NCBI GenBank assembly: GCA_963708295.1
Contig: CAVPSJ010000004.1
Location: forward strand, 480,001 to 544,000
Origin: an uncultured delta proteobacterium
GTDB lineage: Bacteria; Desulfobacterota; BSN033; UBA1163
Length of the DNA: 64,000 nt
Direction: 5' to 3'
A model generated the notes under the pieces. It was not told the origin of the DNA, made no database searches, and saw only the letters and a list, made by a program, of their open reading frames with translations. Made by a program: the position numbers and the translations under genes. Below, in pieces: positions 13 through 59,608 of the stretch. The first letter of the stretch is position 1. The number at the start of each line of letters is the position of its first letter.

Positions 13-1551
13 TTGAAACGAGTCGATGAGAATCTGGAGAAGATGGATCAGAGAGGAGAACGCTTTGACTTCGAAGCCTTGAAGCGGAATCTTGCCTCCC
101 TGAAGGAAAGACTCCCTCAGGAGCCTAAGGAAACCATTACCCAGGAAATGGAACGATTGGCCCTCCTCGCAGAAGAGATTTCGAAGAAGGCCAAGATGAA
201 TGAAGTGGAGGCCATGGCCCGGGAGATTAAGAGCCGGCAGAACCGTCTGATGGACTTTCTGAAGGAGTTTAAAGGTCCTCTGAACCGGGAAGAGCTGGAG
301 GACATCACAAAGGAGCTGAAGGCCCTCGAAGAGCTAATCCGATCGGTGATGGAGGCCCTCGCCAAATTGGCCCCTGAACTCCCTGAGGAATTTGTCAATC
401 TCCCGGAGTTCCAAGGCTTTGAATTTCAGGATCTCTTAAAAGATCTAGAGGAAGTTCACAAAAAACTGATGGCCGGAGACTTCAAAGGAGCCCTGGAAAC
501 AGCCCAGAGACTTATTCAAGCTCTGTCTGAAATGATGGCTCAACTGGGGAGAATGGGAAGACAGACAGGGATGGGTTCTTTCGAAAGACTTCAGGGAGAG
601 ATGGCTCGCCAGGCTGGAGAGCTGGATAAGATATTGACTGAACAGAAGGAGATATTGAATGAAACGGAGAAGATCGACAGGGACTTGAAATGGAAGATTG
701 AAAAGGAGATTGAAAAGAGGTTGGATCGATCCCTTTCGCATCTGAATGAAATTCTCGATGAACTCCATCATTCTCCGACAGAGGAACAGAAAGACTTGAT
801 TGAGGAGTTGGAGAGGCTTTTAAAAACCGGCAATCTGGAAAGATTCTCCCAATTAGGAGAAGGATTGGAGAAAGCGTTTTCTGAGAAACCCGATGATCAA
901 AAGGGGATCAGAGAATTGATCGAGATCATGAAGCGTTTGGCACCCCAACAAGACGAAATCATGACTCTAGAACAGAAGGAGAAATTTCCGGACCTCTCAA
1001 AGAGGGAGGTGAATCTGAGAGAAAGGACAGATCGTTTAAGAGAAAAACTGGAGATATTCGCCCAACTCTTTCCGGGCATGGATACGGGGGTTCTCAATGA
1101 CTTTAAGGGAGCCGCGGGGGACATGGGAGAGGCCTCAGGAAAGTTGGGAAAGGAAGATGCTCCTTCTGCCATCCCTCCAGAACAAGAGGCGATCAGGAAG
1201 TTGACCCGCTCTCAACAAGCCATGCAGCAGATGGCTCAGCAGATGGCCCAACAGATGGCCATGCGGATGCAAGCCAACCAATGGGGTTATCAATGGTGGG
1301 GATACGATCCGAGGCCGGGTTGGTATTACGGCCCTTGGCTCCCCATGCCCACCCGACCCCAACCCCAGTTTAACCGTCCCTTGGAGAGAGGCTACACGGG
1401 CATTGACCGGGAAGAATTCGAGCCTCCGTCGAAGGATGCCTATCAGGTTCCTAAGATCTTCAGAGAAAAGATCATGGAATCTTTGAAAGAGGGAATTCCT
1501 CCTCAATACAAGAGAGACGTGGAAAAATACTTCAGAGGTTTGACGGAATGA
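13..1551 (+). CDS. DUF4175-like long coiled-coil protein, C-terminal part (5' end lies before the window)
   Basis: Helical E/K/Q-rich ORF open from the window edge. It has a Q/M-rich tract and ends in the tail ...FREKIMESLKEGIPPQYKRDVEKYFRGLTE typical of this family. It lies in a MoxR cluster. Confidence 0.6.
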   Translation: MKRVDENLEKMDQRGERFDFEALKRNLASLKERLPQEPKETITQEMERLALLAEEISKKAKMNEVEAMAREIKSRQNRLMDFLKEFKGPLNREELEDITKELKALEELIRSVMEALAKLAPELPEEFVNLPEFQGFEFQDLLKDLEEVHKKLMAGDFKGALETAQRLIQALSEMMAQLGRMGRQTGMGSFERLQGEMARQAGELDKILTEQKEILNETEKIDRDLKWKIEKEIEKRLDRSLSHLNEILDELHHSPTEEQKDLIEELERLLKTGNLERFSQLGEGLEKAFSEKPDDQKGIRELIEIMKRLAPQQDEIMTLEQKEKFPDLSKREVNLRERTDRLREKLEIFAQLFPGMDTGVLNDFKGAAGDMGEASGKLGKEDAPSAIPPEQEAIRKLTRSQQAMQQMAQQMAQQMAMRMQANQWGYQWWGYDPRPGWYYGPWLPMPTRPQPQFNRPLERGYTGIDREEFEPPSKDAYQVPKIFREKIMESLKEGIPPQYKRDVEKYFRGLTE

Positions 1552-3109
1552 GACAAATAGCCATTGTTCTTATCTTCCTCGTTATCATCCTCCCCTCTGC
1601 CGGGAGGACCGCTTCCCAGGAGGCCATCGATTCTCTCACGGTAAAATTGGAGGTTGGGAAGTGTCGGATGCATGGGGAGACGTCAAACGTCTTCTTGGAG
1701 ATGAGCCTAATGATCCTAAGCTTCTGGAGCTCGCCTCATCCATTGCCTTTCACAAAGGCGACTACCCGGAGGCATCGAAGTTGATGAAACAGGCATTGGC
1801 GCAAGACGGGGAGGACGAGAAGAGAAAAGCTTTTGCCTCCTTCATTGAAGAGACCCTTGCCCTTGTTTCCTCATTTAAGAGAGTGGAGAGTTCCCATTTC
1901 GTCATCAGCCTGGATGAAAAACAAGACGGCATCTTGACGGATTACCTCATCGATTCCTTGGAGAAGACCTACCAGGTCATGGCGCAGCAATACGGCTTTC
2001 AGCCCCTGGAGAAGATTCGGATTGAAGTCTTTCCAAATGCGAAGGCCTTCTATTTGGTGACCACCCTGTCTGTCCGGGATATTGAAGTGACAGGAGCAGT
2101 TGGAATCGCCCAATTTAATAAACTAATGATGCTTTCCCCAAGGGCGCTGGTTCATGGTTACCGCTGGCTGGATGCTATCAGTCACGAATACATGCACTAT
2201 CTCATCTTCAAATTGACGAAAAATAAAGCCCCCATCTGGTTTCATGAAGGAATGGCAAAATATGAAGAGACGCGTTGGCGAAATGGTCCTTCCTATCTTT
2301 CCTCCTTCTATCAAACGCTGCTGGCCCGAGCCCTATCGGAAGGCAAGCTCATTCGTTTTGACCAGATGGAGCCTTCCCTCGTCAGACTTGAGAATCCAGA
2401 GGATGTTCAGCTTGCCTATGCAGAGGCTGCATCTGCCATCGAATTTATCCTCATGAAGTCAGGATACGATGGGCTCCAAAAGGTGATGAATCAGATGGCC
2501 TCAACGAATCAAAAAGGAGCGGGAAAGGCCATCCAGGAGGTCCTGGGCCTTCCTTTCTCCGAATTTGAAGAGACCTGGAAGGGATTCTTATCTTCCAAGG
2601 GATATCAGGAGATCGCCGGAGTCCATGGACATCGATATAAGATCAAGGAAGGAAAGTACGACGAGGAGCGGATGGACACGGAGGAGATGAAATCCCTCGT
2701 CGCAAAGAATAAGGCTCATCTCGGAGACCTGCTCAAGGAGAGGGGAAGGATGGAGGCCGCTGTTTTAGAGTATCGACGGGCTTTGGAGGAATCCCGTGAT
2801 TCCGTAACGATCATGAAGAAACTTTCCTCTGCCCTCACGACGATGGCCAGATATGAAGAGGCCCTTGAGCTTCTGAGGCGAGCCAAGGATATCTCTTCTG
2901 ATCATCCCAGCATCTTCACGGCTCTGGGTCAAACTTATTTAAAGCTGAAGCGGATGAAAGAGGCGAGAGACTCTTTTCGGGAGGCGATTCAAATCAATCC
3001 CTTTGATCCCGAAGCCCATATGGGTCTGGCCACAGCCTGATGAGGCGATTGGAGAAAGGACCTCAGCTTCTAAAGAGAGGGAGATTGCCAATAAGCTTAT
3101 TCAGCGATG
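1548..3109 (+). CDS. Secreted TPR + peptidase MA-like (HExxH) protein; two apparent frameshifts (~1640-1660 and ~3038)
   Basis: The ATG overlaps the upstream stop and begins a signal peptide (MRQIAIVLIFLVIILP). The 1661-3040 frame has ISHEYMH...PIWFHEGMA and TPRs. Removing one base at GCCTGATGAG restores ...AYEAIGERTSASKEREIANKLIQR* ending at 3109. Confidence 0.75.
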
Positions 3110-3328: not shown

Positions 3329-4343
3329 ATGGAAGCAATAAGAGACTATCAAGCGCCGGATGAAGACTTGGCACAGGTGGAGGAGATGTGCCGAACGAAG
3401 GCCGAGATCACGGCGGAGATTAAGAAGGTAATCGTGGGGCAGGAGAAGGTGATCGAGGAGATCCTGATCGCCCTTTTCTGCAGAGGCCATAGCCTCCTGG
3501 TGGGCGTACCGGGGCTTGCCAAGACATTGCTCATTTCAACCTTGGCTGGCATCATGGAGCTTGAAATTCAATCGTGTCCAATTCACTCCGGATTTGATGC
3601 CCTCGGACATCACAGGGACAGATATCTTGGAGGAGGAAGCGGGAAGCAAGAAACGCTCTTACCGATTTCTAAAGGGACCCATCTTTACCAATATTCTGTT
3701 GGCCGATGAGATCAATCGAACTCCCCCCAAGACTCAAGCGGCCCTCCTCCAGGCAATGCAGGAGTATCAAGTAACAGCAGGAGGGATGACCTATGCCCTT
3801 GATCTTCCCTTCTTCGTCCTGGCCACTCAGAATCCCATCGAGCAGGAGGGAACCTATCCACTGCCGGAGGCTCAACTGGACAGGTTCATGTTCAATATCG
3901 GGATGGATTATCCCCCCTTCACGGAGGAGGTCGAGATCGTCGCAACGACAACGACCTCCTATCAACCGGTATTGGACAAGGTGATCAATGGTGAAAAGAT
4001 ATTACAGATGCAGGACCTGGTGCGAAGGGTTCCAGCTTCTTCCCATGTAATCGAGTATGCCGTGAGATTGCTCCGTTCGTCGCGACCAGGAGAACCCGAG
4101 GCCCTTCCCTTTGTGAAAGAATGGGTGGAGTGGGGGGCTGGACCCCGGGCCTCCCAACACCTGATACTGGCTGCGAAAGCAAAGGCGATCATGCGGGGTG
4201 CTTATGTGGCCTCTGTGGAGGATGTGAAGGCGGTGATCCAATCGATTTTGAGACATCGGATTATCGTCAACTTCAAGGCCCAGGCAGAAGGAATTCATCC
4301 CCTCGACATCATCCGGCGCCTTTTAGAAGAGGTGAAGCCTTGA
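3329..4343 (+). CDS. MoxR-family AAA+ ATPase; one frameshift near 3560
   Basis: The first frame has VIVGQ...GVPGLAKT (Walker A). The second has [33 protein letters not shown] and [22 protein letters not shown]. Confidence 0.92.
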
Positions 4344-5221
4344 ACTATTTTGATCCGAAGGTTCTGAGCCAGCTAAAGAATCTTTTTCTAAGAGCCCGCC
4401 ATGTGGTGGATGGGGTGATGGTTGGGATTCATCCCTCCCGTTCAAAAGGCTTCACTTCTGAATTTGAGGGGCACCGGGAGTATTCTCAGAGCGATGATAT
4501 TCGCCATATCGATTGGAAGGCGTATGGGAGGTTTGACCGGTACTTCATCAAGGAATACCGGGAGACGACCAATCTAAGGGCCTTCATCCTTCTCGATGCC
4601 AGTGCTTCGATGGGGTACGGCTCTGATGGATGGAGCAAATTCGACTATGCCTCCACCCTGGCGGCCTCTTTAGCCTACCTGATGTTGAGACAGCAGGATT
4701 CGGTCGGCCTGATCACTTTTTCAAATCGGATCGAAGGAACGGTCCCTCCTAAAGCCACCTCCGGACACCTCTTTGCCATTCTAAAAGAGTTGGAAGACGA
4801 AAAACCACGAGGGGAGACCTCTGCCGGTTCGATTCTCCAAGAATTGGCGGGATCCCTAAAAAGAAAGGGTCTCCTTCTTCTCATCTCCGACCTCTTGGAT
4901 AAACCTGAAGATGTGATCAGGGGTTTGAAGCAGCTTCGCTCAAAAGGAAATGACCTATTGGTCTTCCACGTTCTTGATAGAGATGAACTCGAATTTCCCT
5001 TTAAGGACCCGACGCTCTTTCTCGATATGGAGGAGGAGATCAAATTGTTGACCGACCCCGATGCGATCAGGTCGGCTTATCTTAAGGCGATTCATACATT
5101 GATAGAGAACTATCGAGAGTCCTGTGCCCAAAATCTAATGGATTATTCCCTATTGGACACGTCGATTGGGCTAGATCGGGCGTTGGTGCGCTACTTGAAA
5201 TGGAGGGAGAAGTTTAGGTAA
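4340..5221 (+). CDS. DUF58 (VWA-like) MoxR partner protein
   Basis: EFEGHREY...[10 protein letters not shown]...[14 protein letters not shown]. The TTG start overlaps the moxR stop. Confidence 0.9.
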
Positions 5222-5224
5222 CCT

Positions 5225-5342
5225 CAATGACAAATGTTAAACTTGAAACCTCAAGACAAATCCAAATTTCAACTATCAGATTTTCAAAGCTTCCTTCAAT
5301 TGACATTTATTTGGCATTTGGATTTTAGCATTTGAAATTTTT
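5225..5342 (+). repeat. Heptamer-periodic imperfect palindromic intergenic element, copy B (divergent CAAAT/ATTTG type)
   Basis: CAAATGT/CAAATCC/AAATTTC units on the left are mirrored by GCATTTG/GATTTTA/GCATTTG units on the right. Confidence 0.6.
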
Positions 5343-5351
5343 TCGTAACCC

Positions 5352-7349
5352 ATGGCCCTTTCATTCTTAAATCCTTTCTTCCTTTTTGGTTTGGCTGCTG
5401 CGGCCATTCCCATTCTGATCCACCGGCTGACCAAGCGGAAAGCCATGACTCGAAAATTCTCTGCTGTTCGTCTCCTGCTCGAATCCCAGCGAATGGTGAC
5501 GCGGCCTCAGAGGCTCAGGCATTTCTTTCTCCTCGCTCTCAGAATCGTGGCCATGATAAGCCTGGTCCTCCTCATGGCAAGACCTGTGCTCACGGAGCCT
5601 GGCATTCTGGTGCAAGAGGAGAAGGCAATGGCGATCATTCTCGATAACTCTCTCAGCATGGCGTACCGGGAAGACGGAGGAGAACGATATGATCTTGCCA
5701 AGAAGGCGGTGAAAGAGGTGATCGAGAGGTCTAACGGACAAGTCGCCATCCTTCCAACCGCGTCCTTCCCTACGAGTCGCTTCCGGCAGGAGCGTCAGAT
5801 CCGCTGGATGACGCGCGAAGAGGCTCTGAAGGAGTTATCCTCCATTCCCCTCTCTTATGGAAGAGGTGACCTCAAGGCTTGCCTTCACCTCGCCTATCAG
5901 AAGCTGAAAGAACTCAAGATGGGCAAGGAGATCTTCGTCGTCAGCGACCTGACCAGGGGAGATTGGGAAGGCCTCGCTTTAAATAAACTGGATGTTGTTC
6001 CCGCAGACGTGGGAATGACGCTCTTAAGGATCGGAGGTTCGGGAAGAGACCCTAATCTCACGGTGAAAGAAGCAAGATGGGTTGAAGAAGAGGCTGTCGT
6101 GGGTGTCCAGTCCCACCTGGAGGTGACGGTATCGAACTTATCCGATCGTTCTGGAACGGCACTTGTTCAACTCTTTCTTTCAGGGATCAAAGTGGATCAA
6201 AAATTGATCGACCTCAACGCCATGGGTGAAGGAAAAGTCTATTTTGAGCTTTCTCTCGATAAGAAAGGTTGGATCAATGGAGAGGTGAGGTTATCATCCA
6301 GAGACAATCTGTCTCTGGATGATAGTTTCTACCTTCCGCTGAAAGTTAGGGAAAAGATAAAAGTTCTCATCATCGACGGAGCTCCAAAGGCTTCGCTCAA
6401 AGAAAGCGAGAGCTACTATCTTCTCCATGCTCTTCGTCCGGACGATTCGGAAGAGTCGCCCTCTATCCCCCGGGTTATCTCAGAGGGAGAAGTCGCCAAG
6501 ACGGACACGAATCTCTATGAAGTGATCGTATGGATGAACGCGGCAAGGCTCCAGGGATCCCAGTTGGCGTCGCTCTTAGGATCGGGAAAACCCATCCTCC
6601 TCTTTCTCGGGGATCAGGTCGTCCCTGATGAATATAACCGGATCCCGCTCTTTCCCTGGAGGATTAGAGAGATGAATGTGGCACGGACCGGGAAACCGGA
6701 GCGGATTGTTCAAGTCGATGACCGCTTTGACTTTTTGAAACCCTTTTCCGGCCCGGGGGGGGAGAGCCTCAGAGCTGCTTCCTTTCACCGCTATTTTAAA
6801 GTGGAAGGAAGCATGAAAAGTCTTCTGATCTTTGGGAATCAAGATCCCCTTCTTGTCGAGTCGGAGATCGGAAAGAGTAAGATTCTTTTGTTCACCTCGA
6901 GTGGTGATCTGGACTGGAATGACCTCCCTTTGAAGGCCGCCTACCTTCCTTTAATTCAGGGGATGATGAGGGAAGCCATCGGTACTTTTAGAGATTCGAT
7001 CCCGTCCACGATTCGATTCGGTGAGCCCTTTGGGGAGAAAACACCGGCTACCCAGATTGCCGGACCTGAAGGAGGGCCTGGGATCTATCAATTCTTTCCC
7101 TCTCCCGGAGAGGTGAGACAGGGGGTGAACACCCCTTTTGAAGAATCGGATTTAGGGAAACTGACGGAGGAAGAGGTCAGAAAGAAGTTTGGGAAAAAGG
7201 ATATCAACATTGTGGAATATAAGGAGGGGGGGTCCGGCAATCTTCAAACAAACCGGAAAGAGATTTGGCCCTTTCTCCTTGCTTTCCTATTAATGGTCCT
7301 TGGTGTTGAGACGGTGGTGGCCAATGGAGTTCCGAGGGGAAGGGAATAA
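5352..7349 (+). CDS. BatA-domain / VWA membrane protein
   Basis: N-terminal double-TM BatA motif (FLNPFFLFGLAAAAIPILIH...RFSAV...LLALR...ARP), MIDAS-like DNSLSM and VSDL, C-terminal TM (EIWPFLL). Confidence 0.85.
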   Translation: MALSFLNPFFLFGLAAAAIPILIHRLTKRKAMTRKFSAVRLLLESQRMVTRPQRLRHFFLLALRIVAMISLVLLMARPVLTEPGILVQEEKAMAIILDNSLSMAYREDGGERYDLAKKAVKEVIERSNGQVAILPTASFPTSRFRQERQIRWMTREEALKELSSIPLSYGRGDLKACLHLAYQKLKELKMGKEIFVVSDLTRGDWEGLALNKLDVVPADVGMTLLRIGGSGRDPNLTVKEARWVEEEAVVGVQSHLEVTVSNLSDRSGTALVQLFLSGIKVDQKLIDLNAMGEGKVYFELSLDKKGWINGEVRLSSRDNLSLDDSFYLPLKVREKIKVLIIDGAPKASLKESESYYLLHALRPDDSEESPSIPRVISEGEVAKTDTNLYEVIVWMNAARLQGSQLASLLGSGKPILLFLGDQVVPDEYNRIPLFPWRIREMNVARTGKPERIVQVDDRFDFLKPFSGPGGESLRAASFHRYFKVEGSMKSLLIFGNQDPLLVESEIGKSKILLFTSSGDLDWNDLPLKAAYLPLIQGMMREAIGTFRDSIPSTIRFGEPFGEKTPATQIAGPEGGPGIYQFFPSPGEVRQGVNTPFEESDLGKLTEEEVRKKFGKKDINIVEYKEGGSGNLQTNRKEIWPFLLAFLLMVLGVETVVANGVPRGRE

Positions 7350-8178
7350 CGGTTTATCGAAGGTTGCTGTGAGAAGCAATCCGCAAGAGAAGAGCAACAT
7401 TTCCCGGAGAAGATTCATTTCTCTAAGCTTGGGACTTGCGGCTGGAGTTTTATTTCCAAGCTTTAAATTTCCTCTGTCCGCTTCTGGGAATCGAGTCGCA
7501 CCGACTTTCCCTCAATTTTTTTTCGCCCAGATTAAATATCAAGGTGGACAGTGGGATCCCAATCCCCAGTTTTTGGATTCTCTCATGGAGGAGTTGGAGC
7601 TAAGGACGAGTATCCGTGGGATGAAAGAACGGCGCCTGATCACCCTTTCTGATCCTGATCTCTTCTTCTGCCCTCTTCTTTATATGGCAGGGAAAGACGA
7701 GTTTGATCCTTTTACTCCTAAAGAAAGGGAGATCTTAGGGCGATTTCTGACCTACGGAGGGTTTCTACTTGCTGACGATACCATGGGAGCCAAAGGGTTT
7801 GGGTTTGATAAGTCCTTCCGGAGGGAGATGAACCAGATTTTTCCGGGACAGGACCTGAAAAGGCTTCCGTCCGACCATTCTGTTTATCGTAGCTTCTATT
7901 TGATAGAGACCCTTGGGGGACGCCAGAAGGTGAACCCTTATTTGGAAGGCATCACCCTCGATCAATGGACCCCGGTCATCTACTCTCAAAATGATCTCTC
8001 AGGAGCCTGGGCGAGGGATCGGTTCGGAAAATGGATTCATCCGTGTGTTCCCGGAGGCGAACCTCAAAGAGCTTCCGCCTTTAAGGCGGGTATCAATATC
8101 ATCGTCTACTCCCTGGCTTCGGACTACAAAAAGGACCTGGTCCATCATCCTTTTATCAAGAGGCGGCTCAATTTATGA
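7300..8178 (+). CDS. DUF4159 protein with Tat signal (true start probably the GTG at 7369)
   Basis: SRRRFISL twin-arginine motif, PLLYMAG, GGFLLADD, VIYSQNDLSGAW and a C-terminal DYKKDLVH. Confidence 0.85.
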   Translation: MVLRRWWPMEFRGEGNNGLSKVAVRSNPQEKSNISRRRFISLSLGLAAGVLFPSFKFPLSASGNRVAPTFPQFFFAQIKYQGGQWDPNPQFLDSLMEELELRTSIRGMKERRLITLSDPDLFFCPLLYMAGKDEFDPFTPKEREILGRFLTYGGFLLADDTMGAKGFGFDKSFRREMNQIFPGQDLKRLPSDHSVYRSFYLIETLGGRQKVNPYLEGITLDQWTPVIYSQNDLSGAWARDRFGKWIHPCVPGGEPQRASAFKAGINIIVYSLASDYKKDLVHHPFIKRRLNL

Positions 8179-10364
8179 ATTGGAATCGGATTGTCATCGC
8201 CCCAGTTTTTCCCTTCTGGGTGATCCTGATCCTTCTCTTTCTTGGATTGGCTCTCACCGTCGTCCAGTATTGGATGATTCAAAAGAGAATAGGCCGTCCG
8301 AAAGCGATTCAGATATCCCTCCTCCGTCTGATCACCCTTTCACTCCTCGTCTCTTTCAGTGTGAACCCGTCTTTCATAGTAAGGAAAGAGGAAAAAATTA
8401 TTCCCGCCCTTGCCATCCTTGTCGATCGGTCGCAAAGCATGAGCTTATCTGGACAAGGAGGAAAAAAAACAAGGCTCGATGATGCGAAGGCGCTGCTGCT
8501 GGAAGGGGAGAAACCGCTTCTCAAAGCCCTGAAAGAGAGTTTTGAGGTGAAACTCTACACCATGGGTGAATCACTTCAAGCCATTGGCGAAAGCGAACTT
8601 CCCGGTCTGAAGGCCGTGGGAAAGAGAGCGGATCTGAATGGGGCTTTGGAAAAACTTGGTCCCACGAACTCTCTGCTCCTGCTATTGAGCGACGGAAACG
8701 TCGACTGGAATGGGGGCCATAGGAACGCACCTCCTCTCATCGCAATTCCCATGGGGGATCCCAGAGGTTACAGAGATATTTCAATTAAAGAGATCGAGGC
8801 ACCTCCCATCGCCTTTCGGGGGAGGCCAGTACAGATCGAAGTGGTTATAAAAAGTCATGGGTATTCTGGAATCACCGTTCCAGTCATTCTTAAAAATGGA
8901 GCCAAGATTCTAACAGCCAAAAGCTTTTCGATCCGAAGAAGTCCTGAGCAAGGGGTCACCTCTTTTTCCTTCACCCCAGAGGAAGTGGGTTCCTTTCCCC
9001 TCTCCGTATCGATTCCCCCCCAATTTGGCGAGAGCTTAACCTCAAATAACGATGCGAATATTGCGCTTAAAGTGTACAGGGACAAGATCAGGATATTGAT
9101 GGTGTCAGGAAGTCCAAGCTTAAATTACCGTTACATGAGAAGTGCTTTTAAGAACGATCCCACGATTGATCTGCTCTCCTTCATTATCTTGAGAACGCCG
9201 GCAAATATCATCAATGTTCCCCTTCAAGAGCAGAGTCTTATCCCCTTTCCGGTAGAGACCCTCTTCACGAATGAACTGAAGAATTTTGACCTGGTCATTT
9301 TTGACGATTTTTTCTACCGACCCTATTTAAATCTAAACCATCTGGAGCGTGTGAAAGAATTTGTCAGAGGAGGGGGTAGCTTCGCCGTCATCGGAGGGCC
9401 CAATTTCTACGGCCAAGGGGGATATGAGGGTACTCCCCTTGAGGAAATCCTTCCTGCCAGATTGTCAGGAAAGGAGGACTATCGCCGTGATCTCCCTTCA
9501 GGGGTTAAATTGAGCCGTCTGGGAACGATCCATCCCATAACTCGATTTTCTTCAGAGGGAAATAATCACCAAGGCCTGTGGCAGGAAATGCCTCCTCTGG
9601 ACGGCATCAATCTTTTGGAAGCCAAAAGCTCAGGAAGGGTGCTACTGGAGAGCACCGATGGAATACCGAGACCTATTTTGGTCGTGGGGAATTATGGCAA
9701 GGGAAGAGTTTCAATCCTAGGAACAGACTTTTCCTGGAAATGGTATATGGGGATGCTGGCTCAGGGAAAGGGAAATTGGGCCTACCTCAGGTTCATGGAA
9801 AGAATGGTCCGCTGGCTTACGCGAGATCCAAGCCTTGATCCGGTTCAGATCACCCTGCCGGCAAAGCCTGGAGAGGTCGGACAGGAGATCGGAGTTCAGA
9901 TCCGGGTCAAAGAAGAAGGCTCCTCCTCTGCCTCGAAGAGGATCGTTTCATTTTCTGTGTTCAATCCAGAAGGAACAAAGGTGGTATCTCAACTCAGAAC
10001 AACGGCACAAGAGGGTGAATTTCGCGGGTCTTTTCTGCCCGAAAAGGGAGGGGTCTATCAGGTGAGAGTGGAAACTCTCGAGGGTCGTCTTGAAGAGTCC
10101 GTGGTGGTTGCCGAGGCAGTAGAAGGTCTGGACGGAGTTCCGAACCATGAACATCTAAAAATGATCGCAGAGGCGACCGGGGGGAAAGTTCTGTCAAGCG
10201 GTAAAGACGTTTTGAGAGAAGCCGAGAGCTACGGTGAGAAAATCAAGGAGCATTTTATCGAAGAGAAACGTCTTCCTCTTTGGAGCGCGCCGTACCTGCT
10301 GGTCCTTATCCCGGCACTCCTCGGGATGGAATGGTATCTCAGGAGAAGAGGAGGAATGGTTTAG
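8175..10364 (+). CDS. Membrane protein with VWA-like and class I glutamine-amidotransferase-like domains
   Basis: N-terminal TMs, DRSQSM, LSDG, DPTIDLLSFIILR, GGSFAVIGGP, YGKGRV, C-terminal EWYLRRR. Confidence 0.8.
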   Translation: MNWNRIVIAPVFPFWVILILLFLGLALTVVQYWMIQKRIGRPKAIQISLLRLITLSLLVSFSVNPSFIVRKEEKIIPALAILVDRSQSMSLSGQGGKKTRLDDAKALLLEGEKPLLKALKESFEVKLYTMGESLQAIGESELPGLKAVGKRADLNGALEKLGPTNSLLLLLSDGNVDWNGGHRNAPPLIAIPMGDPRGYRDISIKEIEAPPIAFRGRPVQIEVVIKSHGYSGITVPVILKNGAKILTAKSFSIRRSPEQGVTSFSFTPEEVGSFPLSVSIPPQFGESLTSNNDANIALKVYRDKIRILMVSGSPSLNYRYMRSAFKNDPTIDLLSFIILRTPANIINVPLQEQSLIPFPVETLFTNELKNFDLVIFDDFFYRPYLNLNHLERVKEFVRGGGSFAVIGGPNFYGQGGYEGTPLEEILPARLSGKEDYRRDLPSGVKLSRLGTIHPITRFSSEGNNHQGLWQEMPPLDGINLLEAKSSGRVLLESTDGIPRPILVVGNYGKGRVSILGTDFSWKWYMGMLAQGKGNWAYLRFMERMVRWLTRDPSLDPVQITLPAKPGEVGQEIGVQIRVKEEGSSSASKRIVSFSVFNPEGTKVVSQLRTTAQEGEFRGSFLPEKGGVYQVRVETLEGRLEESVVVAEAVEGLDGVPNHEHLKMIAEATGGKVLSSGKDVLREAESYGEKIKEHFIEEKRLPLWSAPYLLVLIPALLGMEWYLRRRGGMV

Positions 10365-35195: not shown

Positions 35196-35318
35196 GGCAA
35201 TTCTTTGCCATTCGTTCAAACTGTACGGCAAAATTTGGCCACTTATTATATTCTATCTTCAAAAAACCTATAAAAAACAAAAACTTGAAATCGCTGACCA
35301 ATTGGCATAGAATATGCT
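35196..35318 (+). promoter_or_regulatory. sigma54 promoter with two upstream palindromic enhancer-like sites
   Basis: TTGGCATAGAATATGCT at 35302-35318. GGCAATTCTTTGCC (35196) and GGCAAAATTTGGCC (35227) are 31 bp apart, followed by an A-tract spacer. Confidence 0.7.
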
Positions 35319-35421: not shown

Positions 35422-36555
35422 TTGGCCGATCACTTGACAACGATTCATGAGATCATGATCTCGATCTTCACCGGAAAGAAAGAATTCAAAATTCGTCAGG
35501 ACATCCTCCGCGGTGTCTACGAAGAAAACCTCTCGATACTCGGCAGGGGCCAACCCCCCCTGTCACGACGGAGATCTTTCTTTGCGAAAGGAATTTTCTT
35601 GTCCATGGTGCTCTCCGCCTTTGTGGTTCTCATGCCCGACCAACACACGGGCAGTTCATTCGCGCCAGCAGAACGCACCCTGAAGATCAGCTCACTTCCC
35701 GTTTCGCTTCCCCCGGCAATGGTTTCAGCAGAATTGTCCCCGGATACGGACAAGTACCCTCATCTTCCCGCCGCAAGTGCTGCCCCGGAAGTCCCGCCGA
35801 ACTCTTCCGAGTTCAGTGCCATTCTAAACAATCACAATGTATCCCTCATGCGGATGCTTGGGCTGAAAATTAGGACGATCATGATCGATGCAGGCCATGG
35901 CGGATCCGATTCGGGCACCATTGGAAAGACCGGTACGAAGGAAAAGGATATCACCCTCGATCTCGCTAAGAGACTGAAAGCCCATTTGCTCAAGAGCAAC
36001 CTCCACGTCCTCATGACGAGGGAGGATGATTCGACCGTGCCACTTCTCGAACGGGTGACCCTTGTCCGTGAAGCAAAAGCCGACCTTTTCATCTCCATTC
36101 ATCTCAATTACTTGCCAAAGAAGAACACGAATATCATTGAAACGTATTATTTCGGACCTTCCGATGACAAGAAAACGCTGAGGCTCGCCGAGAAAGAAAA
36201 CGCAGGATCGGAATATGGATTGAGCGATTTCAGGGAAGTCGTGGAAATGCTCGGCACGACCATGAAGCTTCAGGAATCCAAGGAGTTTGCTGAATCCATT
36301 CAGGCGAATCTGTTTCTGAATCGGAGTAAACATACAAAAGATATACAGGACCACGGCGTAAAGAGGGCACCCTTCGTGGTCCTTCTGGGCGTGGACGTGC
36401 CCTCCGTGCTGGCAGAGGTGTCCTGTCTCAGCAATCCTGAAGAAGAGCTTGATCTCAATTTTGAAAGCCACAGAGAGAATATTGCCAGTTACCTTGCAAC
36501 CGGTATTTTCGACTATCTCAATAAAGGAGCCCGAACCCATGAAGCCAAAAGATGA
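35422..36555 (+). CDS. Membrane-anchored N-acetylmuramoyl-L-alanine amidase (Amidase_3); start uncertain
   Basis: Cytoplasmic N-tail, TM, Pro-rich linker, then IDAGHGG...EK...FISIH...LAEV Zn-amidase motifs. Confidence 0.9.
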   Translation: MADHLTTIHEIMISIFTGKKEFKIRQDILRGVYEENLSILGRGQPPLSRRRSFFAKGIFLSMVLSAFVVLMPDQHTGSSFAPAERTLKISSLPVSLPPAMVSAELSPDTDKYPHLPAASAAPEVPPNSSEFSAILNNHNVSLMRMLGLKIRTIMIDAGHGGSDSGTIGKTGTKEKDITLDLAKRLKAHLLKSNLHVLMTREDDSTVPLLERVTLVREAKADLFISIHLNYLPKKNTNIIETYYFGPSDDKKTLRLAEKENAGSEYGLSDFREVVEMLGTTMKLQESKEFAESIQANLFLNRSKHTKDIQDHGVKRAPFVVLLGVDVPSVLAEVSCLSNPEEELDLNFESHRENIASYLATGIFDYLNKGARTHEAKR

Positions 36556-37567
36556 GCAGAAGGAAGACAACGTCCTGTTTGTCGGCATCGACCTTGGAAC
36601 ATCACGGAGTGCCATCTCTTCGAGCAATGGCATGCGGGAATGGATTGAGAGTTACGCCGGATGGCCGAAGGACTTTATCGCTGAGCAGGTCGTCGGAAAA
36701 CCGGTGCTCTTCGGAGCCGAAGCACTGCAGCACCGGCTTTCTCTCGACATCTGCAGGCCCCTTGAACGGGGCATCATCAAGGAAGGGATCGAAAGTAGCG
36801 AGAGGGCGGTCAAAGAAATCATCCGACATCTTATTGATCTTGCCAAGCCTGAGGCCGCCCACAAGATTCACGCAGTGGTCGGGGTCCCCGCCGATTCGCT
36901 AAAAGTCAATAAGCTTTCCATCCGGAGGGCGGTCGTAGAATATGTGCATACGCTCATGGTGGTATCGGAACCCTTTGCGATCGCCTACGGAATGAATCTG
37001 CTGAATGACGCGCTCATCATCGACATCGGGGCCGGGACCATTGACTTCTGCATCATGCATGGGACCATTCCTTCTGAAGAAGACCAGCGGACCATTTTCA
37101 CGGCAGGCGACTACATCGATGAGCAACTCTTCAATTATCTCATTGAGAAATACCCGAATTCAAAGTTCAACAAGAACATGGTGCGGCAGTTCAAGGAGAA
37201 ATTCAGTTTTGTGCGCGACATCCAAGAACAGATTCGCGTCGAGCTGCCGGTGAACGGCAAACCGGTCATGCATGACATCAAGGAGGAGATTCGGCGGGCA
37301 TGCGAGAGCATGCTGCCGTCACTCGTTGAGACTACGACCGAAATGATCGCCCGGTTTGATCCCGAATTCCAGATGAAGATAAAGAACAATATCGTTCTTG
37401 CGGGAGGAGGAAGTCTGATCCGAGGGATTGCTGAGTACCTACAGAATGCCTTGAGGGAATACGGCACCTGCAAGGTCACCTGCGTTGCAGACCCGCTCTT
37501 TGCGGGCGCGGATGGGGCGCTCAAGCTCGCCCAAGACATGCCGTCCAAATACTGGGAAACACTCTGA
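36539..37567 (+). CDS. MamK-family actin-like ATPase
   Basis: VGIDLGTS, GWPKD, V-x-GVPA, VVSEPF-x-x-x-YG, IIDIGAGT-x-D-x-C-x-x-x-GT-x-P-x-x-EDQ, KEKFSFV, NIVLAGGGS-x-IRG, DP-x-F-x-G-x-x-GALKLA-x-x-x-P-x-x-YW. These are MamK-type rather than MreB-type blocks. AAGGAG RBS. Confidence 0.88.
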   Translation: MKPKDEQKEDNVLFVGIDLGTSRSAISSSNGMREWIESYAGWPKDFIAEQVVGKPVLFGAEALQHRLSLDICRPLERGIIKEGIESSERAVKEIIRHLIDLAKPEAAHKIHAVVGVPADSLKVNKLSIRRAVVEYVHTLMVVSEPFAIAYGMNLLNDALIIDIGAGTIDFCIMHGTIPSEEDQRTIFTAGDYIDEQLFNYLIEKYPNSKFNKNMVRQFKEKFSFVRDIQEQIRVELPVNGKPVMHDIKEEIRRACESMLPSLVETTTEMIARFDPEFQMKIKNNIVLAGGGSLIRGIAEYLQNALREYGTCKVTCVADPLFAGADGALKLAQDMPSKYWETL

Positions 37568-37577
37568 GCGCAGGCCG

Positions 37578-38582
37578 ATGTTTGAAGGTCTGAGGCGCCC
37601 CCTGAGAGAGCACATGACCGGCGAAACGATACTTGTCGTAGACGCAGGTGAGGACATAGATCAGAGAATGACCGCTACGCTCGAGGCGGAGAGCTACCTG
37701 GTCTATCCCGTCTCCAGCCAAGATGTGAACGCTGAGCTGGCTGAATTACTCCAGCCTTCGTTGACCTACATCAAGCCCCTTGACCTGAGCCCAACGGGGC
37801 TCAAACCCTGTAAAGCCATTCATGCCATTCCTCTCTTAAGAAAGGTCCCTGTTATTATCTTAGCCTCCATGAAAAAACCGCTGAGTCCCGACACCTCCAG
37901 GGAATACGGGGTCGTGGATTTTCTCGAACCGACATTCGGCCCGGAAGAGCTCATCGAAAAGACTCGATCGATTCTGGGAAAGACGGCTCCTTCGCGAAGC
38001 CCGATAGAGGATGGACCGACCCCCTTGCCACAACCTCAAAGGGAAACGAAGAAAAAGCGCCCTGCGTTTTTCCTGCCTGCGATCGGCATCGTGACCCTTC
38101 TGGTGATTGCCGGAGTGGGTATTCTGGCTTTTCAGCAATTTATGCCAGCCCAGAATATTTTGCCTTCTTCCACCGTGGCAGCCCCTGTTCGGGTTCCATC
38201 CCCCGCTCCTCGGGCTGAATCGAAACCGCAGTTGCCCCCGGAAAAGAACGTCGTAAATACTTCCGACCCTGTATCGCCCGTACCGTCCACGCCGCCCGGG
38301 CAACCCTCGTCGCGCTCATCGGAATCCGCATCCCAACCCCCACGCACGCCGTTCTACTCTGTCCAGCTGGGAGCCTTCAAGAATGAAGACAAAGCGCAGG
38401 CCCTCGCGAAGAAGTTCCGGGAAAAAGGATACGACGCATTTATTCATCTGGGCGTAGCAAAGGATAACTTTCCGATTTATAGAGTACTGGTCAGCAAGTA
38501 TGAAGAAAGAAAGGCTGCCAAAAAGCTGGCAGGAGAAATTCAATCGAGGGAAGAAATCCAGACCACCCTATACGGCGAATGA
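37578..38582 (+). CDS. Pseudo-receiver - TM - Pro-rich linker - SPOR domain protein
   Basis: REC fold (TILVVD...PSLTYIK, with Lys at the expected phospho-Asp position; VPVIIL), single TM, C-terminal SPOR FYSVQLGAF...YRVLV. Confidence 0.82.
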   Translation: MFEGLRRPLREHMTGETILVVDAGEDIDQRMTATLEAESYLVYPVSSQDVNAELAELLQPSLTYIKPLDLSPTGLKPCKAIHAIPLLRKVPVIILASMKKPLSPDTSREYGVVDFLEPTFGPEELIEKTRSILGKTAPSRSPIEDGPTPLPQPQRETKKKRPAFFLPAIGIVTLLVIAGVGILAFQQFMPAQNILPSSTVAAPVRVPSPAPRAESKPQLPPEKNVVNTSDPVSPVPSTPPGQPSSRSSESASQPPRTPFYSVQLGAFKNEDKAQALAKKFREKGYDAFIHLGVAKDNFPIYRVLVSKYEERKAAKKLAGEIQSREEIQTTLYGE

Positions 38583-38600
38583 TGATCAAGACGCGAAGCC

Positions 38601-39554
38601 GTGTCCACCGTCTTCTCAAAACCGACTCAGACTCGAGATAAGCTGCTGAAAACGAAGATACTGGTGTTCCTGTTCCTTCTGGCATGCTTACCCGGTTGTT
38701 ATTCCGGAAGCGTCAAGCCGCTGCTGAACCGTCCTGAATTTAAGGCTGAGAACGAACCGATTCGAATCTTAAGAATCCTTCTGATCACCGACGTCTCCTA
38801 TCAAAAAGACGAAATCGAGAAATTTGTTTCAAAATGCTCGCGCCTTGCTGAAATGCAGGTTGGGATACGCCTTGAAATTGTTGATGGGTACCAAATCAAA
38901 TGGGAAGATGAGTTAGAGGATATCATCAAAATGGAAATGAGGATTGCGGCGGACACCTGGAGTAAGAGGGAACGATTTGATATCGCCCTTACTTTTGTGA
39001 ATTTTGTTCAAAGAGTCAGGGGCGGTAAATTTCCCCTGGGGGCCACCGACACATTTTTTTGGAGGTATCTCTTCGTAAAAGAGCTGGATCCATATATTCT
39101 TCTACACGAGCTGTTTCATGCCTTTTTGCTCGAGCAAGGTGATTCAGGAAGCTGGGTCATGAAGGCAGCAAGACCTCCTTATGGAGGCGAATGGTACTGG
39201 CTTACCCCGGAGGATAGGAAGAAGGTACTTCGTAATAAATGGAGAGATTTCAATATCATGCCTGCTACCGAGCATGAAGAAGCAAGGAAATCGAACGAAA
39301 GCTGGTTTTACTACAACTTGGGGTCGACCTATCTTCAACGAAGGGAGTTTGAGCAGGCCATTCTATTGTTGAACAAATCTCTTGAGATAAACCCGGCGTA
39401 TGCCGACGCTTACGTCAGTCGGGGGAGGAGTCATTATTTTAGAGGAGAATACGACAAATCTTGGGAGGACATTAAAAAGGCACAAGACTTGGGCTACACA
39501 ATTCCCGCTGAATTTCTCAATGATCTTCGCAGGGCCTCTGGTAGAAATAAGTAA
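38601..39554 (+). CDS. Lipoprotein with zincin HExxH motif and C-terminal TPRs
   Basis: Lipobox LPGC, LLHELFHAF, TPRs (YYNLG..., AYVSRG...). Start uncertain. Confidence 0.7.
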   Translation: MSTVFSKPTQTRDKLLKTKILVFLFLLACLPGCYSGSVKPLLNRPEFKAENEPIRILRILLITDVSYQKDEIEKFVSKCSRLAEMQVGIRLEIVDGYQIKWEDELEDIIKMEMRIAADTWSKRERFDIALTFVNFVQRVRGGKFPLGATDTFFWRYLFVKELDPYILLHELFHAFLLEQGDSGSWVMKAARPPYGGEWYWLTPEDRKKVLRNKWRDFNIMPATEHEEARKSNESWFYYNLGSTYLQRREFEQAILLLNKSLEINPAYADAYVSRGRSHYFRGEYDKSWEDIKKAQDLGYTIPAEFLNDLRRASGRNK

Positions 39555-56918: not shown

Positions 56919-59608
56919 TTAAAGCTTCCGGATTTTCACCGCGCAGACCTTGAATTCAGGGATCTTGGCTACAGGATCCAAGGCGTCGATGGTCAGCAGG
57001 TTGGCAGCTGCTTCCTTGAAGTGAAAGGTCATGAAAACGACACCCGGTGGAAGATTGTCGGAAACCTTTGATTTGACCTGGACCCTGCCGCGACGAGAGG
57101 TGACTTCGACCAATCCGTTATCCGGCTTGATTCCTAACCGTTGCGCGTCTTCAGGATTGATCTCGATCACTCCCTCCGGATAGATCTCCGAGAGTCCCTT
57201 CGACTTCCGGCTGATCACCGTGTGGTAGTGGTAGAGCACCCGGCCTGTGGTCAACAGGAAAGGATATTTCTCGTCGGGGAGTTCCGGAGCGGGCGCATAA
57301 GGCGTGACGTGAAACTTTCCTTTGCCCCGGCTGAACTTGTCTTTATGGAGGAAGGGAGTGCCCGGATGGTCTTGCGTCGGACAGGGCCACTGGAGTCCCA
57401 ACCCTTCCAACCGTCGCGTACTGCATGCCACCGTATGAGGGCGTCACGGAAGCGATCTCGTCCATGATTTCTTTGGGTGAAGAATATCCCAGCGGATAAC
57501 CCAGGCGTGATGAGAGATCGCAGAGGATCTGCCAGTCTGGCCGGCTATTTCCAATGGGCTCGATCGCCTTGCGCACGCGCTGGACCCGTCGCTCCGTGTT
57601 TGTGAAGGTTCCATCCTTCTCGGCAAAGCTCACTCCGGGAAGGACCACGTGGGCCAATTCGGCGGTCTCCGTAAGAAAGATGTCCTGGACGACGAGGAGG
57701 TCGAGGTGTTTGAGTTCCTCCTTCACCTGATTCATATTGGGGTCCGAAAGCAATGGATTCTCTCCGAGGATGAAAAGGGCCTTCACTTTCCCCTCGGCGA
57801 TCCCCTTCATCATCTCCATCAGAGTCAGCCCGGGACGGGGCGGAAGAGAGACGCCCCACGCCTTTTCAAACCTCTGCCGAACCGCAGGGTCGTCGACCCG
57901 TTGATAGCCCGTATACACATTCGGCAGGCCGCCCATGTCACAGGCTCCCTGAACATTGCTTTGTCCCCGGAGGGGGTTGACTCCCGAAGAAGGTTTACCG
58001 ATCTGTCCTGTGGCCATGGACAGGTTCGCCAGGGCAAGAACGTTGTTCGTCCCCGTGACGTGCTGGGTGATGCCCATCGCATAGAGAATGGAGGAATTGG
58101 AGGACTGGGCATAAAGACGCGCTGCTTCCACGATATCGCTTGCCGGCACACCCGTGATCTTTTCCACCGCTTCCGGAGTATAATCTTTCACCGAATCGGC
58201 AAGGGCCTCAAATCCTTCTGTGCGTTCGTCCACGAAGGCCTTGTTGAGCCATCCCCGGGAAATGATGACGTTCAGCATCCCGTTGATCAAGGCCACGTCC
58301 GTCCCGGGCTTTTGTTGAAGCCAGAGATGGGCGTAGTCCACAAGGTCGATCCTCCGGGGATCGGCCACAATGAGCTTGGCCTTTTTCTGCCTCACGGCCG
58401 CTTTGACCTCGAGGGCAATGACAGGATGATTCTCGGATGTGTTTGAGCCGATGACGAAAATGCAGTCCGCATTCCTGATCTCTCCGATGGGATTGGTCAT
58501 CGCTCCGCTTCCAAATGCCATCGCCAGACCGGCGACGGTGGAGCTGTGTCAGAGACGGGCACAGTGGTCTACATTGTTCGTGCCCAGGGCAGCCCGGGCG
58601 ATCTTCTGGAGGAGATAGTTCTCTTCATTCGTGCACTTGGCAGAGACAAGGACACCGATGGCATCGGCTCCATGCTGGGCCTTTACCTTTTTCAGACCGT
58701 TCGCCACGGTATCTAGGGCCTCATCCCAGGAGGCCTGGCGAAACTTCCCGTTCTCCTTGATCAGGGGCTCGGAGAGCCGGTCAGGACTGTGCACGTAGTC
58801 GAAACCAAACCTGCCCTTCACACAGGTCCAGCCTCGATTCACTCCCAGGTCAGGATCAGAAGTAACCTTCACCACACGGTTGTTCTTTCACGTTGAGAAC
58901 AAGTGTGCATCCGACACCGCAATAAGAACAGGTGGTCGGAACTTTTTTCAACTCCCATTCCCGTCCCTCAAAGCGTCCCGCCTTTTCGCTCAGTGCCCCC
59001 ACGGGACAGACACTGACACAGTTCCCGCAGAAGACACAGGGGGTCTCCTGCATGGAGCGATCAAAGGAGGCAGCAATCTTCGTAGCGAATCCCCGTTTGG
59101 AATGGTCCACGGCTTCGCAGTATTGCACTTCATGGCAGACGGTGACACACCTTCCGCACAGGATGCACTTATTGTAATCCCTTTCATAGAAAGGGTTGGA
59201 GGATCGAATGGGGTAGTTGTGTTTCTCTCCCTCGAAGCGCGATTTCCGAATCCCAAATTCGTAGGCGTATTTTTCCAGCTTGCAGGAACCGCTCTTTTCA
59301 CAGGTCATGCAATCATAAGGATGGTCGGAGAGTAAAAACTCGATCGCCAGTCTTCGGGCATCCTGCACCCGCTTTGTGTTGGTTCGGACCACCATCTTGT
59401 TGGCCACGGGATAGGCGCAGGAAGCCACCAGGGTCCTGGATCCCTCAACCTCCACCACGCATAAACGACAGGCCGTGGTCGGCGTCAGATCTTTCCGGTA
59501 GCAAAGATGAGGGATAGGGATCCCTTCCTTCTTGCAGGCGTCAAAGATCGTCATTCCCGCCTGGGCTTTCACCTCACGGCCGTCGATGGTCAATTGCATC
59601 TCTGCCAT
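56919..59608 (-). CDS. fdhA: Selenocysteine-containing Mo/W formate dehydrogenase alpha subunit with NuoG-like FeS N-terminus; frameshifts ~58880 and ~57420
   Basis: [2Fe-2S] and [4Fe-4S] motifs, CSYCGVGC...[57 protein letters not shown]. Confidence 0.92.
58518..58551 (-). other. Sec UGA codon (58551-58549) and bacterial SECIS hairpin
   Basis: mRNA UGA CAC AGC UCC A-CCGUCGCC-GGUCU-GGCGAUGG: an fdhF-type stem-loop just 3' of the UGA. Confidence 0.9.

Follow-up and report, generated by a model that had tools for sequence, protein, structure and literature searches.

A MamK-family actin gene and a peptidoglycan amidase gene form a conserved pair in an uncultured delta proteobacterium and in other bacterial phyla

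Several bacterial actin homologs act together with a partner protein that links them to another cellular structure. MreB and FtsA are joined to the cell wall by RodZ and FtsN, respectively, bitopic proteins with a cytoplasmic N-terminal part, and FtsN also carries a SPOR domain. ParM, which segregates plasmid DNA, receives a short helix of its partner ParR in the groove between actin subdomains IA and IIA. In the bactofilin system the hydrolase LmdC is reportedly bitopic and binds the bactofilin polymer by its cytoplasmic tail. Here we analyze a MamK-family actin gene and the peptidoglycan amidase gene preceding it in an uncultured delta proteobacterium, located in a stretch of 64,000 nucleotides (the window: positions 480,001 to 544,000, forward strand, of contig CAVPSJ010000004.1, assembly GCA_963708295.1; coordinates below are those of the window). 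The genome is 91.47% complete with 5.63% contamination, and all evidence on the amidase/actin module is computational. We consider it fairly probable that the two genes form a widespread module and that the actin, as a filament in the cytoplasm, holds a peptidoglycan amidase of the periplasm and determines where it sits.

In the available portion of a 2023 study (PMC10653835), MamK figures as the actin of magnetotactic bacteria. A MamK-related family of non-magnetotactic bacteria is represented by BeeR, a three-stranded tubular actin of Verrucomicrobiota (PMC11929497); the accessible part of that paper names no partner gene, and 'operon', 'gene cluster' and 'neighbor' have zero occurrences each in it. 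The word 'amidase' is likewise absent from the accessible text of a Saltatorellota preprint describing a filament-forming MamK-like protein (10.1101/817700) and from that of a Thiomargarita preprint, which reports a homolog of mamK next to a flotillin-like gene. The Saltatorellota protein, from Saltatorellus ferox Poly30, formed its filaments in E. coli, and by our reading of the published reverse primer its C-terminus is of the YWExL type, as in the amidase-linked clade described below. In the bactofilin system, according to the available sections, BacA works with the M23 endopeptidase LmdC (PMC10945521). No description of a link between MamK and an amidase was found in the literature, searched in its main texts, with supplements and subscription journals outside reach.

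The locus analyzed here resembles BacA-LmdC, as far as the accessible text describes that system, in that a cytoplasmic polymer would cooperate with a peptidoglycan hydrolase, and differs from it in that the polymer is an actin and the hydrolase an amidase, instead of a bactofilin and an endopeptidase. In MreB-RodZ and FtsA-FtsN, by contrast, the linker is an adaptor or activator and not a hydrolase, and the window actin is neither MreB nor FtsA; the likeness to FtsN lies in the SPOR domain of an accessory protein.

The four genes of the initial annotation (amidase, MamK-family actin, pseudo-receiver/transmembrane/SPOR protein and TPR/HExxH protein) were confirmed from open reading frames (ORFs), Pfam and NCBIfam. 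The bitopic N-acetylmuramoyl-L-alanine amidase, assigned by its Amidase_3 domain and orthologs, is encoded at 35455..36555 (+). Its longest ORF begins at TTG 35422 (35422-36555, 377 amino acids), and ATG 35455 is the likely start because orthologs begin there (MISIF...). The MamK-family actin-like ATPase, a member of an amidase-linked subclade, follows at 36539..37567 (+). The 17-bp overlap annotated between the two genes is exact, with the actin ATG at 36539 and the amidase TGA at 36553-36555, and AAAGGAG precedes the actin ATG; this overlap and ribosome-binding site indicate that amidase and actin are translationally coupled.

The actin scored 417.1 bits against the NCBIfam MamK family NF040964, barely above the cut-off of 400, and fell below the cut-offs for BeeR (NF053558, 220.6 against 530), MreB (83.7 against 293) and FtsA (21.7 against 175.85); its Pfam match was MreB_Mbl (89.5 bits). 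Among solved structures it matched MamK 5jyg best (3.6e-90, residues 6-341), then BeeR 8r2n (6.4e-42) and MreB 1jce (1.6e-14), and the nucleotide-binding motifs DLGTS, SEPF, DIGAGT and GGGS are all present. A profile scan of the whole genome found one MamK-family gene, at 418.5 bits, and two MreB-like genes. These matches and two phylogenetic trees, in both of which the MreB outgroup splits off with support 100, uphold the assignment to the MamK family and not to MreB. The protein is thus like MamK (PDB 5jyg, 5ljv) in its NCBIfam family, its best solved relative and its ATP-binding motifs, but differs in forming a clade of its own, in having a wall-amidase partner gene and in that no magnetosome genes were found in its genome. 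With BeeR it shares the condition of a MamK-related actin in non-magnetotactic bacteria, differing in the low family score given above.

Related loci were sought in one genome per species with a 6-row MamK-like alignment as query. The scan gave at least 599 pattern matches, at least 584 of them encoding relatives, and the best 80 of these at least 584 are the 80 loci referred to below. An amidase homolog lay upstream of the MamK-like gene on the same strand in 79 of the 80, at a distance of at most 111 bp in 77 loci and of about 1.87 kb in L086 and L090. Judged by record titles, the amidase-actin loci span at least seven phylum-level groups. Actin identity to the window protein was 92-96% in Thermodesulfobacteriota/'delta proteobacterium', 73-85% in Nitrospirota/Thermodesulfovibrionales, 69-71% in Rokubacteria, 60-64% in Desulfobulbaceae and other Deltaproteobacteria, 61-62% in Aminicenantes, 56-62% in Gammaproteobacteria and 49-55% in Rhodothermales/Bacteroidota. 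In many phyla the two genes are neighbours on the same strand and frequently overlap, and no third gene common to all groups was found near them among the 54 neighbour proteins scanned. The other neighbours are housekeeping genes that vary by group, such as polA and citrate synthase in Desulfobulbaceae or mraZ in L096. In Rhodothermales (L082, L086-L092, L095, L097) the pair lies between thyA (thymidylate synthase) and folA (dihydrofolate reductase), a placement that holds in all seven loci with both neighbours scanned.

Three of these loci showed further features. Two small ORFs without a Pfam match lie between amidase and actin in L086 and L090. The gene after the actin in a Thermodesulfovibrionales locus (L036:1695-2465) encodes a Ysc84/SYLF protein, Pfam 'Las17-binding protein actin regulator' (129.5 bits).

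Within the genus of the window, 15 genomes were compared (the window's own and 14 other species). The MamK-like gene was present in 9 of the 15, that is, in 8 of the 14 other species, and in none of 26 genomes outside the genus (10 of the same family, 13 of the same class and 3 of the same phylum). The amidase lies directly upstream of the actin in all eight sister species; in L019 the contig begins inside the gene and shows no more than its final 34 residues. A genome search with the amidase found an ortholog (69-74% identity, or a contig-end fragment) only in the nine actin-bearing genomes, while five of the six genomes without the actin gave a paralogue of 33-34% identity and the sixth (G008) no match. 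The two genes were therefore jointly present or jointly absent in 15 of 15 genomes, and the synteny of amidase and actin is conserved well beyond this genome. The SPOR gene follows the actin in 16 of the 80 loci, and it was lost or had decayed in four of the eight sister species, in which amidase and actin are intact. The conserved unit is the amidase-actin pair and not the trio put forward in the initial annotation, and amidase and actin are gained and lost together. Identity between the window and the sister species was 91-94% for the actin, 65-72% for the amidase and 59-69% for the SPOR protein, and the module stands in differing genomic contexts within the genus.

One sister species contains a second copy of the MamK-linked amidase (G003:C1:426153-427297, 71% identity) in two frames (residues 3-88 and 77-366), with no second MamK-family match there; it may be a broken duplicate. 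In L013, L016 and L017 the module is followed by genes for a sodium:alanine symporter, a D-Ala-D-Ala dipeptidase (Peptidase_M15) and a YkuD L,D-transpeptidase, all three of which handle wall peptides or alanine.

The amidase matched Amidase_3 (PF01520) with 150.8 bits (cut-off 27), its sole Pfam match, and scored below every NCBIfam amidase cut-off. The protein consists of a cytoplasmic N-tail, one transmembrane helix (predicted from the sequence at 35578..35634, +, with RRRS just before it), a Pro/Ser-rich linker and an Amidase_3 catalytic domain of the AmiA/B/C type (35878..36507, +); by the positive-inside rule it would be bitopic with its N-tail in the cytoplasm. The catalytic domain comprises residues 153-362 of the 377-residue ORF, and these 210 residues cover 172 model positions. 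Pfam and PDB alignments place in it a long insert typical of cell-division amidases, and it aligned over its full length, through the insert, with AmiC 4bin (3.8e-28), AmiA 8c2o and Bartonella AmiB 3ne8; short amidases (CwlV, LytH) aligned only over the first ~100 residues of the domain. DAGHGG, KEKD, SIHLN and LAEVS are present, and the H/E/H residues are presumably the zinc ligands. In E. coli AmiA, AmiB and AmiC the insert is an auto-inhibitory helix that is freed by LytM-type activators. Since the window amidase has this type of catalytic domain with the regulatory insert, it is probably auto-inhibited and would need an activator or signal. The likeness to the E. coli enzymes is confined to the catalytic domain: Pfam found no AMIN domain and the N-terminus, formed by the motif described below and the transmembrane helix, has no signal peptide as in AmiB/AmiC, so that the exported-protein architecture is replaced by a cytoplasmic motif and a membrane anchor. 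A second Amidase_3 gene lies elsewhere in the genome, the actin-linked amidase being an extra copy.

Before the catalytic domain the orthologs share almost only a stretch 10-16 residues from their start, followed by a basic linker and the transmembrane helix. The ortholog alignment gives the consensus ILRGVYExNLRIxG (core ILRGVYExNLRI), with Asn invariant in 65 of 65 rows and Leu18 in at least 90%; in the window the motif is ILRGVYEENLSI (35503..35538, +) and forms the predicted actin-docking helix. Its conservation extends across phyla, whereas neither the linker nor the remainder of the tail is conserved. A regular expression of the motif matched 64 of 74 amidase ORFs. Among the ten misses, five are N-terminally cut (L028, L036, L040, L059, L084), four show a variant of the motif by eye (L046, L078, L085, L096) and one is unclear (L056). 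That a periplasmic enzyme should conserve a motif on its cytoplasmic side argues for a partner in the cytoplasm.

A complex of the actin (78-row alignment) and the amidase tail (residues 1-42, 65-row alignment) was modelled. The interaction prediction score from aligned errors (ipSAE) was 0.85 in three of three runs, and the best of three controls reached 0.32. Of 80 solved complexes 58 attained the ipSAE mark, as did 2 of 110 mismatched pairs; these counts give only a rough calibration because our own alignments were used in the model. The runs agreed in at least 95% of contacts, and the predicted local distance difference test score (pLDDT) of the partner was 66. On the tail the interface consists of residues 10, 13-14, 16-22, 24-26 and 28-29, which correspond to the motif, and on the actin of residues 125-126, 129, 140-142, 150, 153, 155-156, 175-177 and 330-342, which in the model form the groove between subdomains IA and IIA together with the C-terminal helix, as assigned by eye from the actin fold. 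The prediction supports binding of the N-tail motif to the actin. It resembles ParM-ParR in the predicted docking of a helix in the IA/IIA groove, with unrelated partner proteins. Two cytoplasmic docking sites for the filament, the pseudo-receiver and the amidase N-tail, had been offered initially, and the conserved motif and the score above controls back the second.

The phylogeny of the actin was analyzed with FastTree (97 rows) and with IQ-TREE in quick mode under LG+G4 (62 rows, omitting 35 of the 97, namely 26 amidase-linked and nine long or distant P rows). Labels were drawn from gene context, and the trees contain no named MamK of a cultured magnetotactic species. In the FastTree analysis all 50 amidase-linked actins plus P0121 form one clade with Shimodaira-Hasegawa-like (SH-like) support of 95, with P0122/P0200 as sister (99). 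IQ-TREE recovered the clade with a Shimodaira-Hasegawa approximate likelihood ratio test (SH-aLRT) value of 92, or 99 including P0122, and its nearest branch, at the weak support of 85, holds L124, a MamK-family gene in a magnetosome-type cluster with a MamB/M-like transporter and FeoB.

In an even sample of 401 genomes of the phylum a MamK-family gene was found in 17. Besides the window, an amidase lay only beside the two actins of at least 65% identity (L105, L111), and none was found within 1.5 kb of the 14 other MamK-family genes (identity at most 48%); the window actin is 43-48% identical to the phylum-sample proteins without an amidase, among them the one in the MamB-like/FeoB cluster. 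It is possible, and we propose it tentatively, that the amidase-linked MamK-like actins constitute a separate, phylum-spanning cytoskeleton with filaments that directly carry a peptidoglycan hydrolase by the cytoplasmic tail of the enzyme, with magnetosome MamK as its sister or offshoot.

If a filament places the amidase, the actin would polymerise with ATP beneath the inner membrane and bind the tails of many amidase molecules, and the filament-bound amidases would then fix the sites where peptide stems are cut from glycan strands. In the genus of the window and in Nitrospirota the SPOR protein would bind the denuded glycan made by the amidase. The process served may be the separation of daughter cells, the control of cell shape or a local opening of the wall. 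The core of the interpretation given in the initial annotation, in which the amidase tail connects an actin with wall remodelling, is retained here; its unit is not, for the reason given above.

Several observations weigh against this interpretation. In L083 no amidase was found in the available 624 bp upstream of the actin, and 6 of the 15 congeneric genomes lack the module, which is dispensable there. Every carrier seen is a metagenome-assembled genome. The activity, auto-inhibition and topology of the amidase are read from its sequence, and the complex score is the model's own confidence; the control that reached 0.32 was an unrelated 49-residue protein and had 24 confident contacts. Conservation of the IA/IIA groove extends to the MamK family as a whole, and in its share of consensus residues the interface lies close to the average position, with 0.78 against 0.72 within the clade and 0.42 against 0.41 beyond it. 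This groove may also be shared with filament contacts, in which case the tail would be limited to monomers or filament ends.

The interface was also considered as a clade-specific set and rejected as such, with no overall enrichment over the average position. Only positions 126, 129, 334 and 338 are clade-specific: 126 is hydrophobic in the clade and polar elsewhere, and 129 is Arg/Lys in the clade and hydrophobic elsewhere.

The same parts could be arranged the other way round, so that the wall-bound amidase, with the SPOR protein where present, fixes a filament that positions a cytoplasmic cargo such as an organelle, an inclusion or DNA. Synteny, motif and complex model fit such an anchor equally well, SPOR and amidase domains both bind peptidoglycan, and the nearest tree branch (support 85) holds the magnetosome-cluster MamK, an organelle-positioning actin. 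We nevertheless regard it as rather unlikely. The scan of 54 neighbours turned up no conserved gene for a cargo or adaptor beside the two genes in any group, and searches of the genome yielded neither magnetosome nor gas-vesicle genes (the latter search having no positive control). The amidase has also kept the H/E/H residues, which we take as zinc ligands, and the regulatory insert, both of which would be superfluous in a mere anchor. Strict co-presence and co-absence in the genus, and an adjacency that persists across phyla while all other neighbours change, also make it improbable that the two proteins are simply co-regulated neighbours that serve one process, such as division or envelope stress, without contact, the motif binding for example a divisome protein or the membrane. 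Adjacency alone is no proof of binding, only 7 of 44 blind neighbours passed the complex test and the interface groove is conserved family-wide, all of which would suit proteins that do not touch; the complex score, however, clearly exceeded that of the controls, and it is the conserved motif, and not another part of the tail, that makes the contacts.

A remnant of a mobile element, either a phage lysis cassette (an endolysin with an actin-like partition protein) or a decayed magnetosome island, would account for the PHROG matches, in which the amidase domain matched a phage endolysin at domain level (97.8 bits) and the actin weakly matched a partition protein (39.8 bits), as well as for the varying context of the module within the genus and for the IS110 transposase adjoining it in L047. 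Short endolysins, however, differ from the amidase, which is bitopic and belongs to the AmiA/B/C type, and in Rhodothermales the pair is stable between thyA and folA in seven loci. Pfam was run on 51 of the 60 window ORFs of at least 90 amino acids (nine small ORFs were left out), and these contained no phage or integrase gene and, as initially annotated for the 64 kb, no mam, gvp, mreCD or plasmid gene; mad was not searched by name. PADLOC found no defence system and one weak match (25.5 bits). In the whole genome, the best matches to MamE, MamQ and MamP were generic relatives that fell well short of the cut-offs (150/800, 39.6/250 and 32/300 bits, respectively), while MamI and Gas_vesicle gave no match, neither having matched in any control genome. 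The searches for MamE, MamQ, MamP and MamI in this 91%-complete genome thus found no full magnetosome island that would explain the actin, and we consider a mobile-element remnant very improbable.

The accessory protein encoded after the actin (37578..38582, +) was assigned by Pfam, NCBIfam and its orthologs as a bitopic protein with a REC-like part, a transmembrane segment and a SPOR domain. The 10-bp gap annotated before its gene holds if the start is at 37578; with the probable start at 37614, where orthologs have their first Met, the gap is 46 bp. It comprises, on the + strand, a pseudo-receiver (~37617-37997), a transmembrane segment (38064-38132), a Pro-rich linker and a SPOR domain (38352-38546). 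The SPOR domain (PF05036) scored 49.8 bits (cut-off 21), and in its SVQLGAF stretch Q, G and F are invariant in 18 of 18 orthologs. The receiver-like part had no Pfam match at E up to 0.01 and only partial NCBIfam matches, the best being PhoB (4.6e-6); the Nitrospirota orthologs L026 and L033 pass Pfam Response_reg (PF00072) with 42.7 and 57.1 bits against 30.2. Its first acidic residue (Asp) is invariant among the orthologs, and at the phospho-acceptor column, set by eye against the receiver consensus, L039 alone has Asp and the other 17 of the 18 orthologs have K, R or N, which bears out its description as a pseudo-receiver. The 16 loci with a SPOR homolog all belong to the genus of the window or are of Nitrospirota type; L022 is a remnant and L045 holds the N-terminal part only. 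Among the eight sister species the gene is full-length in four, fragmentary in two (L012, L013) and absent from two (L014, L018). The genus of the window nests among Nitrospirota rows (99 in both trees), and this nesting, together with the restriction to one genus, suggests that the three-gene form was transferred between these groups.

The TPR protein (38601..39554, +) has a lipoprotein-like N-terminus, HELFH at 39105-39119 and a TPR_1 match of 39.7 bits (cut-off 27.8). It adjoins the conserved module without belonging to it: among the 80 loci a TPR/HExxH homolog lies beside the module only in L020, the nearest relative, and in none of the eight sister-species loci. The window's flanking genes were likewise found in none of these eight loci. 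On the 5' side, a sigma-70-like promoter candidate (TTGAAA-17-TAGAAT, 10 of 12 consensus matches) lies upstream of the amidase at 35285..35313 (+); it is a consensus match only, and seven such sites occur in the region against 4.3 expected. Two soil metatranscriptome libraries had small shares (0.07 and 0.05 of words). Their contigs match parts of the actin, of the SPOR gene and of the 5' end of the amidase at 90-99% similarity, and one contig covers 37517-37810 and crosses the actin/SPOR junction. Since these contigs come from relatives and cannot show a transcript, and the libraries may hold DNA, they are at most a weak hint of module expression.

Other members of the MamK family were met in different settings. 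In the phylum of the window, L125 has a MamA-like protein with two actins, and L121 (G253) and L122 (G310) have tandem MamK-family genes with no magnetosome genes nearby. In L123 (G055) and L126 (G044), also with no magnetosome genes nearby, a MamK-family gene follows that of an SMC-like coiled-coil protein, with a 117-amino-acid ORF between the two in L123; family f21, which includes G055, carries a MamK-family gene in seven of eight sampled genomes. Long MamK-family proteins (490-1232 amino acids) were considered as amidase-MamK fusions, and none of 18 contained Amidase_3. One of them, P0160, is FtsZ (Tubulin and FtsZ_C) fused to a MamK domain, and the 17 other long representatives (P0126-P0173) have N-terminal extensions of ~150-900 residues without a Pfam domain. 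The Thermodesulfovibrionales MamK-like gene at L069:6001-7026 has an in-frame stop that leaves ORFs of 203 and 129 amino acids, and is a pseudogene or an assembly error.

Elsewhere in the window, 13-3040 and 4121-10364 hold a BatA/DUF58/VWA/DUF4159/GATase1-like operon of the 'aerotolerance' type, preceded by genes for a DUF4175 protein and a Peptidase_MA_2/TPR protein, the latter resembling the HExxH/TPR protein in its TPR part only (E 0.007). A single in-frame TGA (58549-58551, context ...CARL-TGA-HSS...) divides a molybdopterin oxidoreductase gene at 57343-58875 (-), adjoining NADH-dehydrogenase-like Fe-S subunits, into two ORFs. This TGA looks more like the selenocysteine codon of an enzyme of the formate-dehydrogenase type than like a break.

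That cytoskeletal polymers place wall enzymes through bitopic proteins is a known principle, of which an actin-amidase version is apparently undescribed in the literature searched. If the actin does place the amidase, it would be the first bacterial actin bound directly to a wall hydrolase, and the motif of about 12 residues and a single actin groove offer an experimental handle on the link. A separate cytoskeleton of this kind, if it exists, would add a distinct task to those of the bacterial actins in shape (MreB), division (FtsA), DNA segregation (ParM) and organelle alignment (MamK). The pair points to one more MamK-type lineage, one with a clear partner; it was seen in no fewer than 79 genomes at species level, from soil, sediment, groundwater and marine groups, and bears on the origin of magnetosome MamK.

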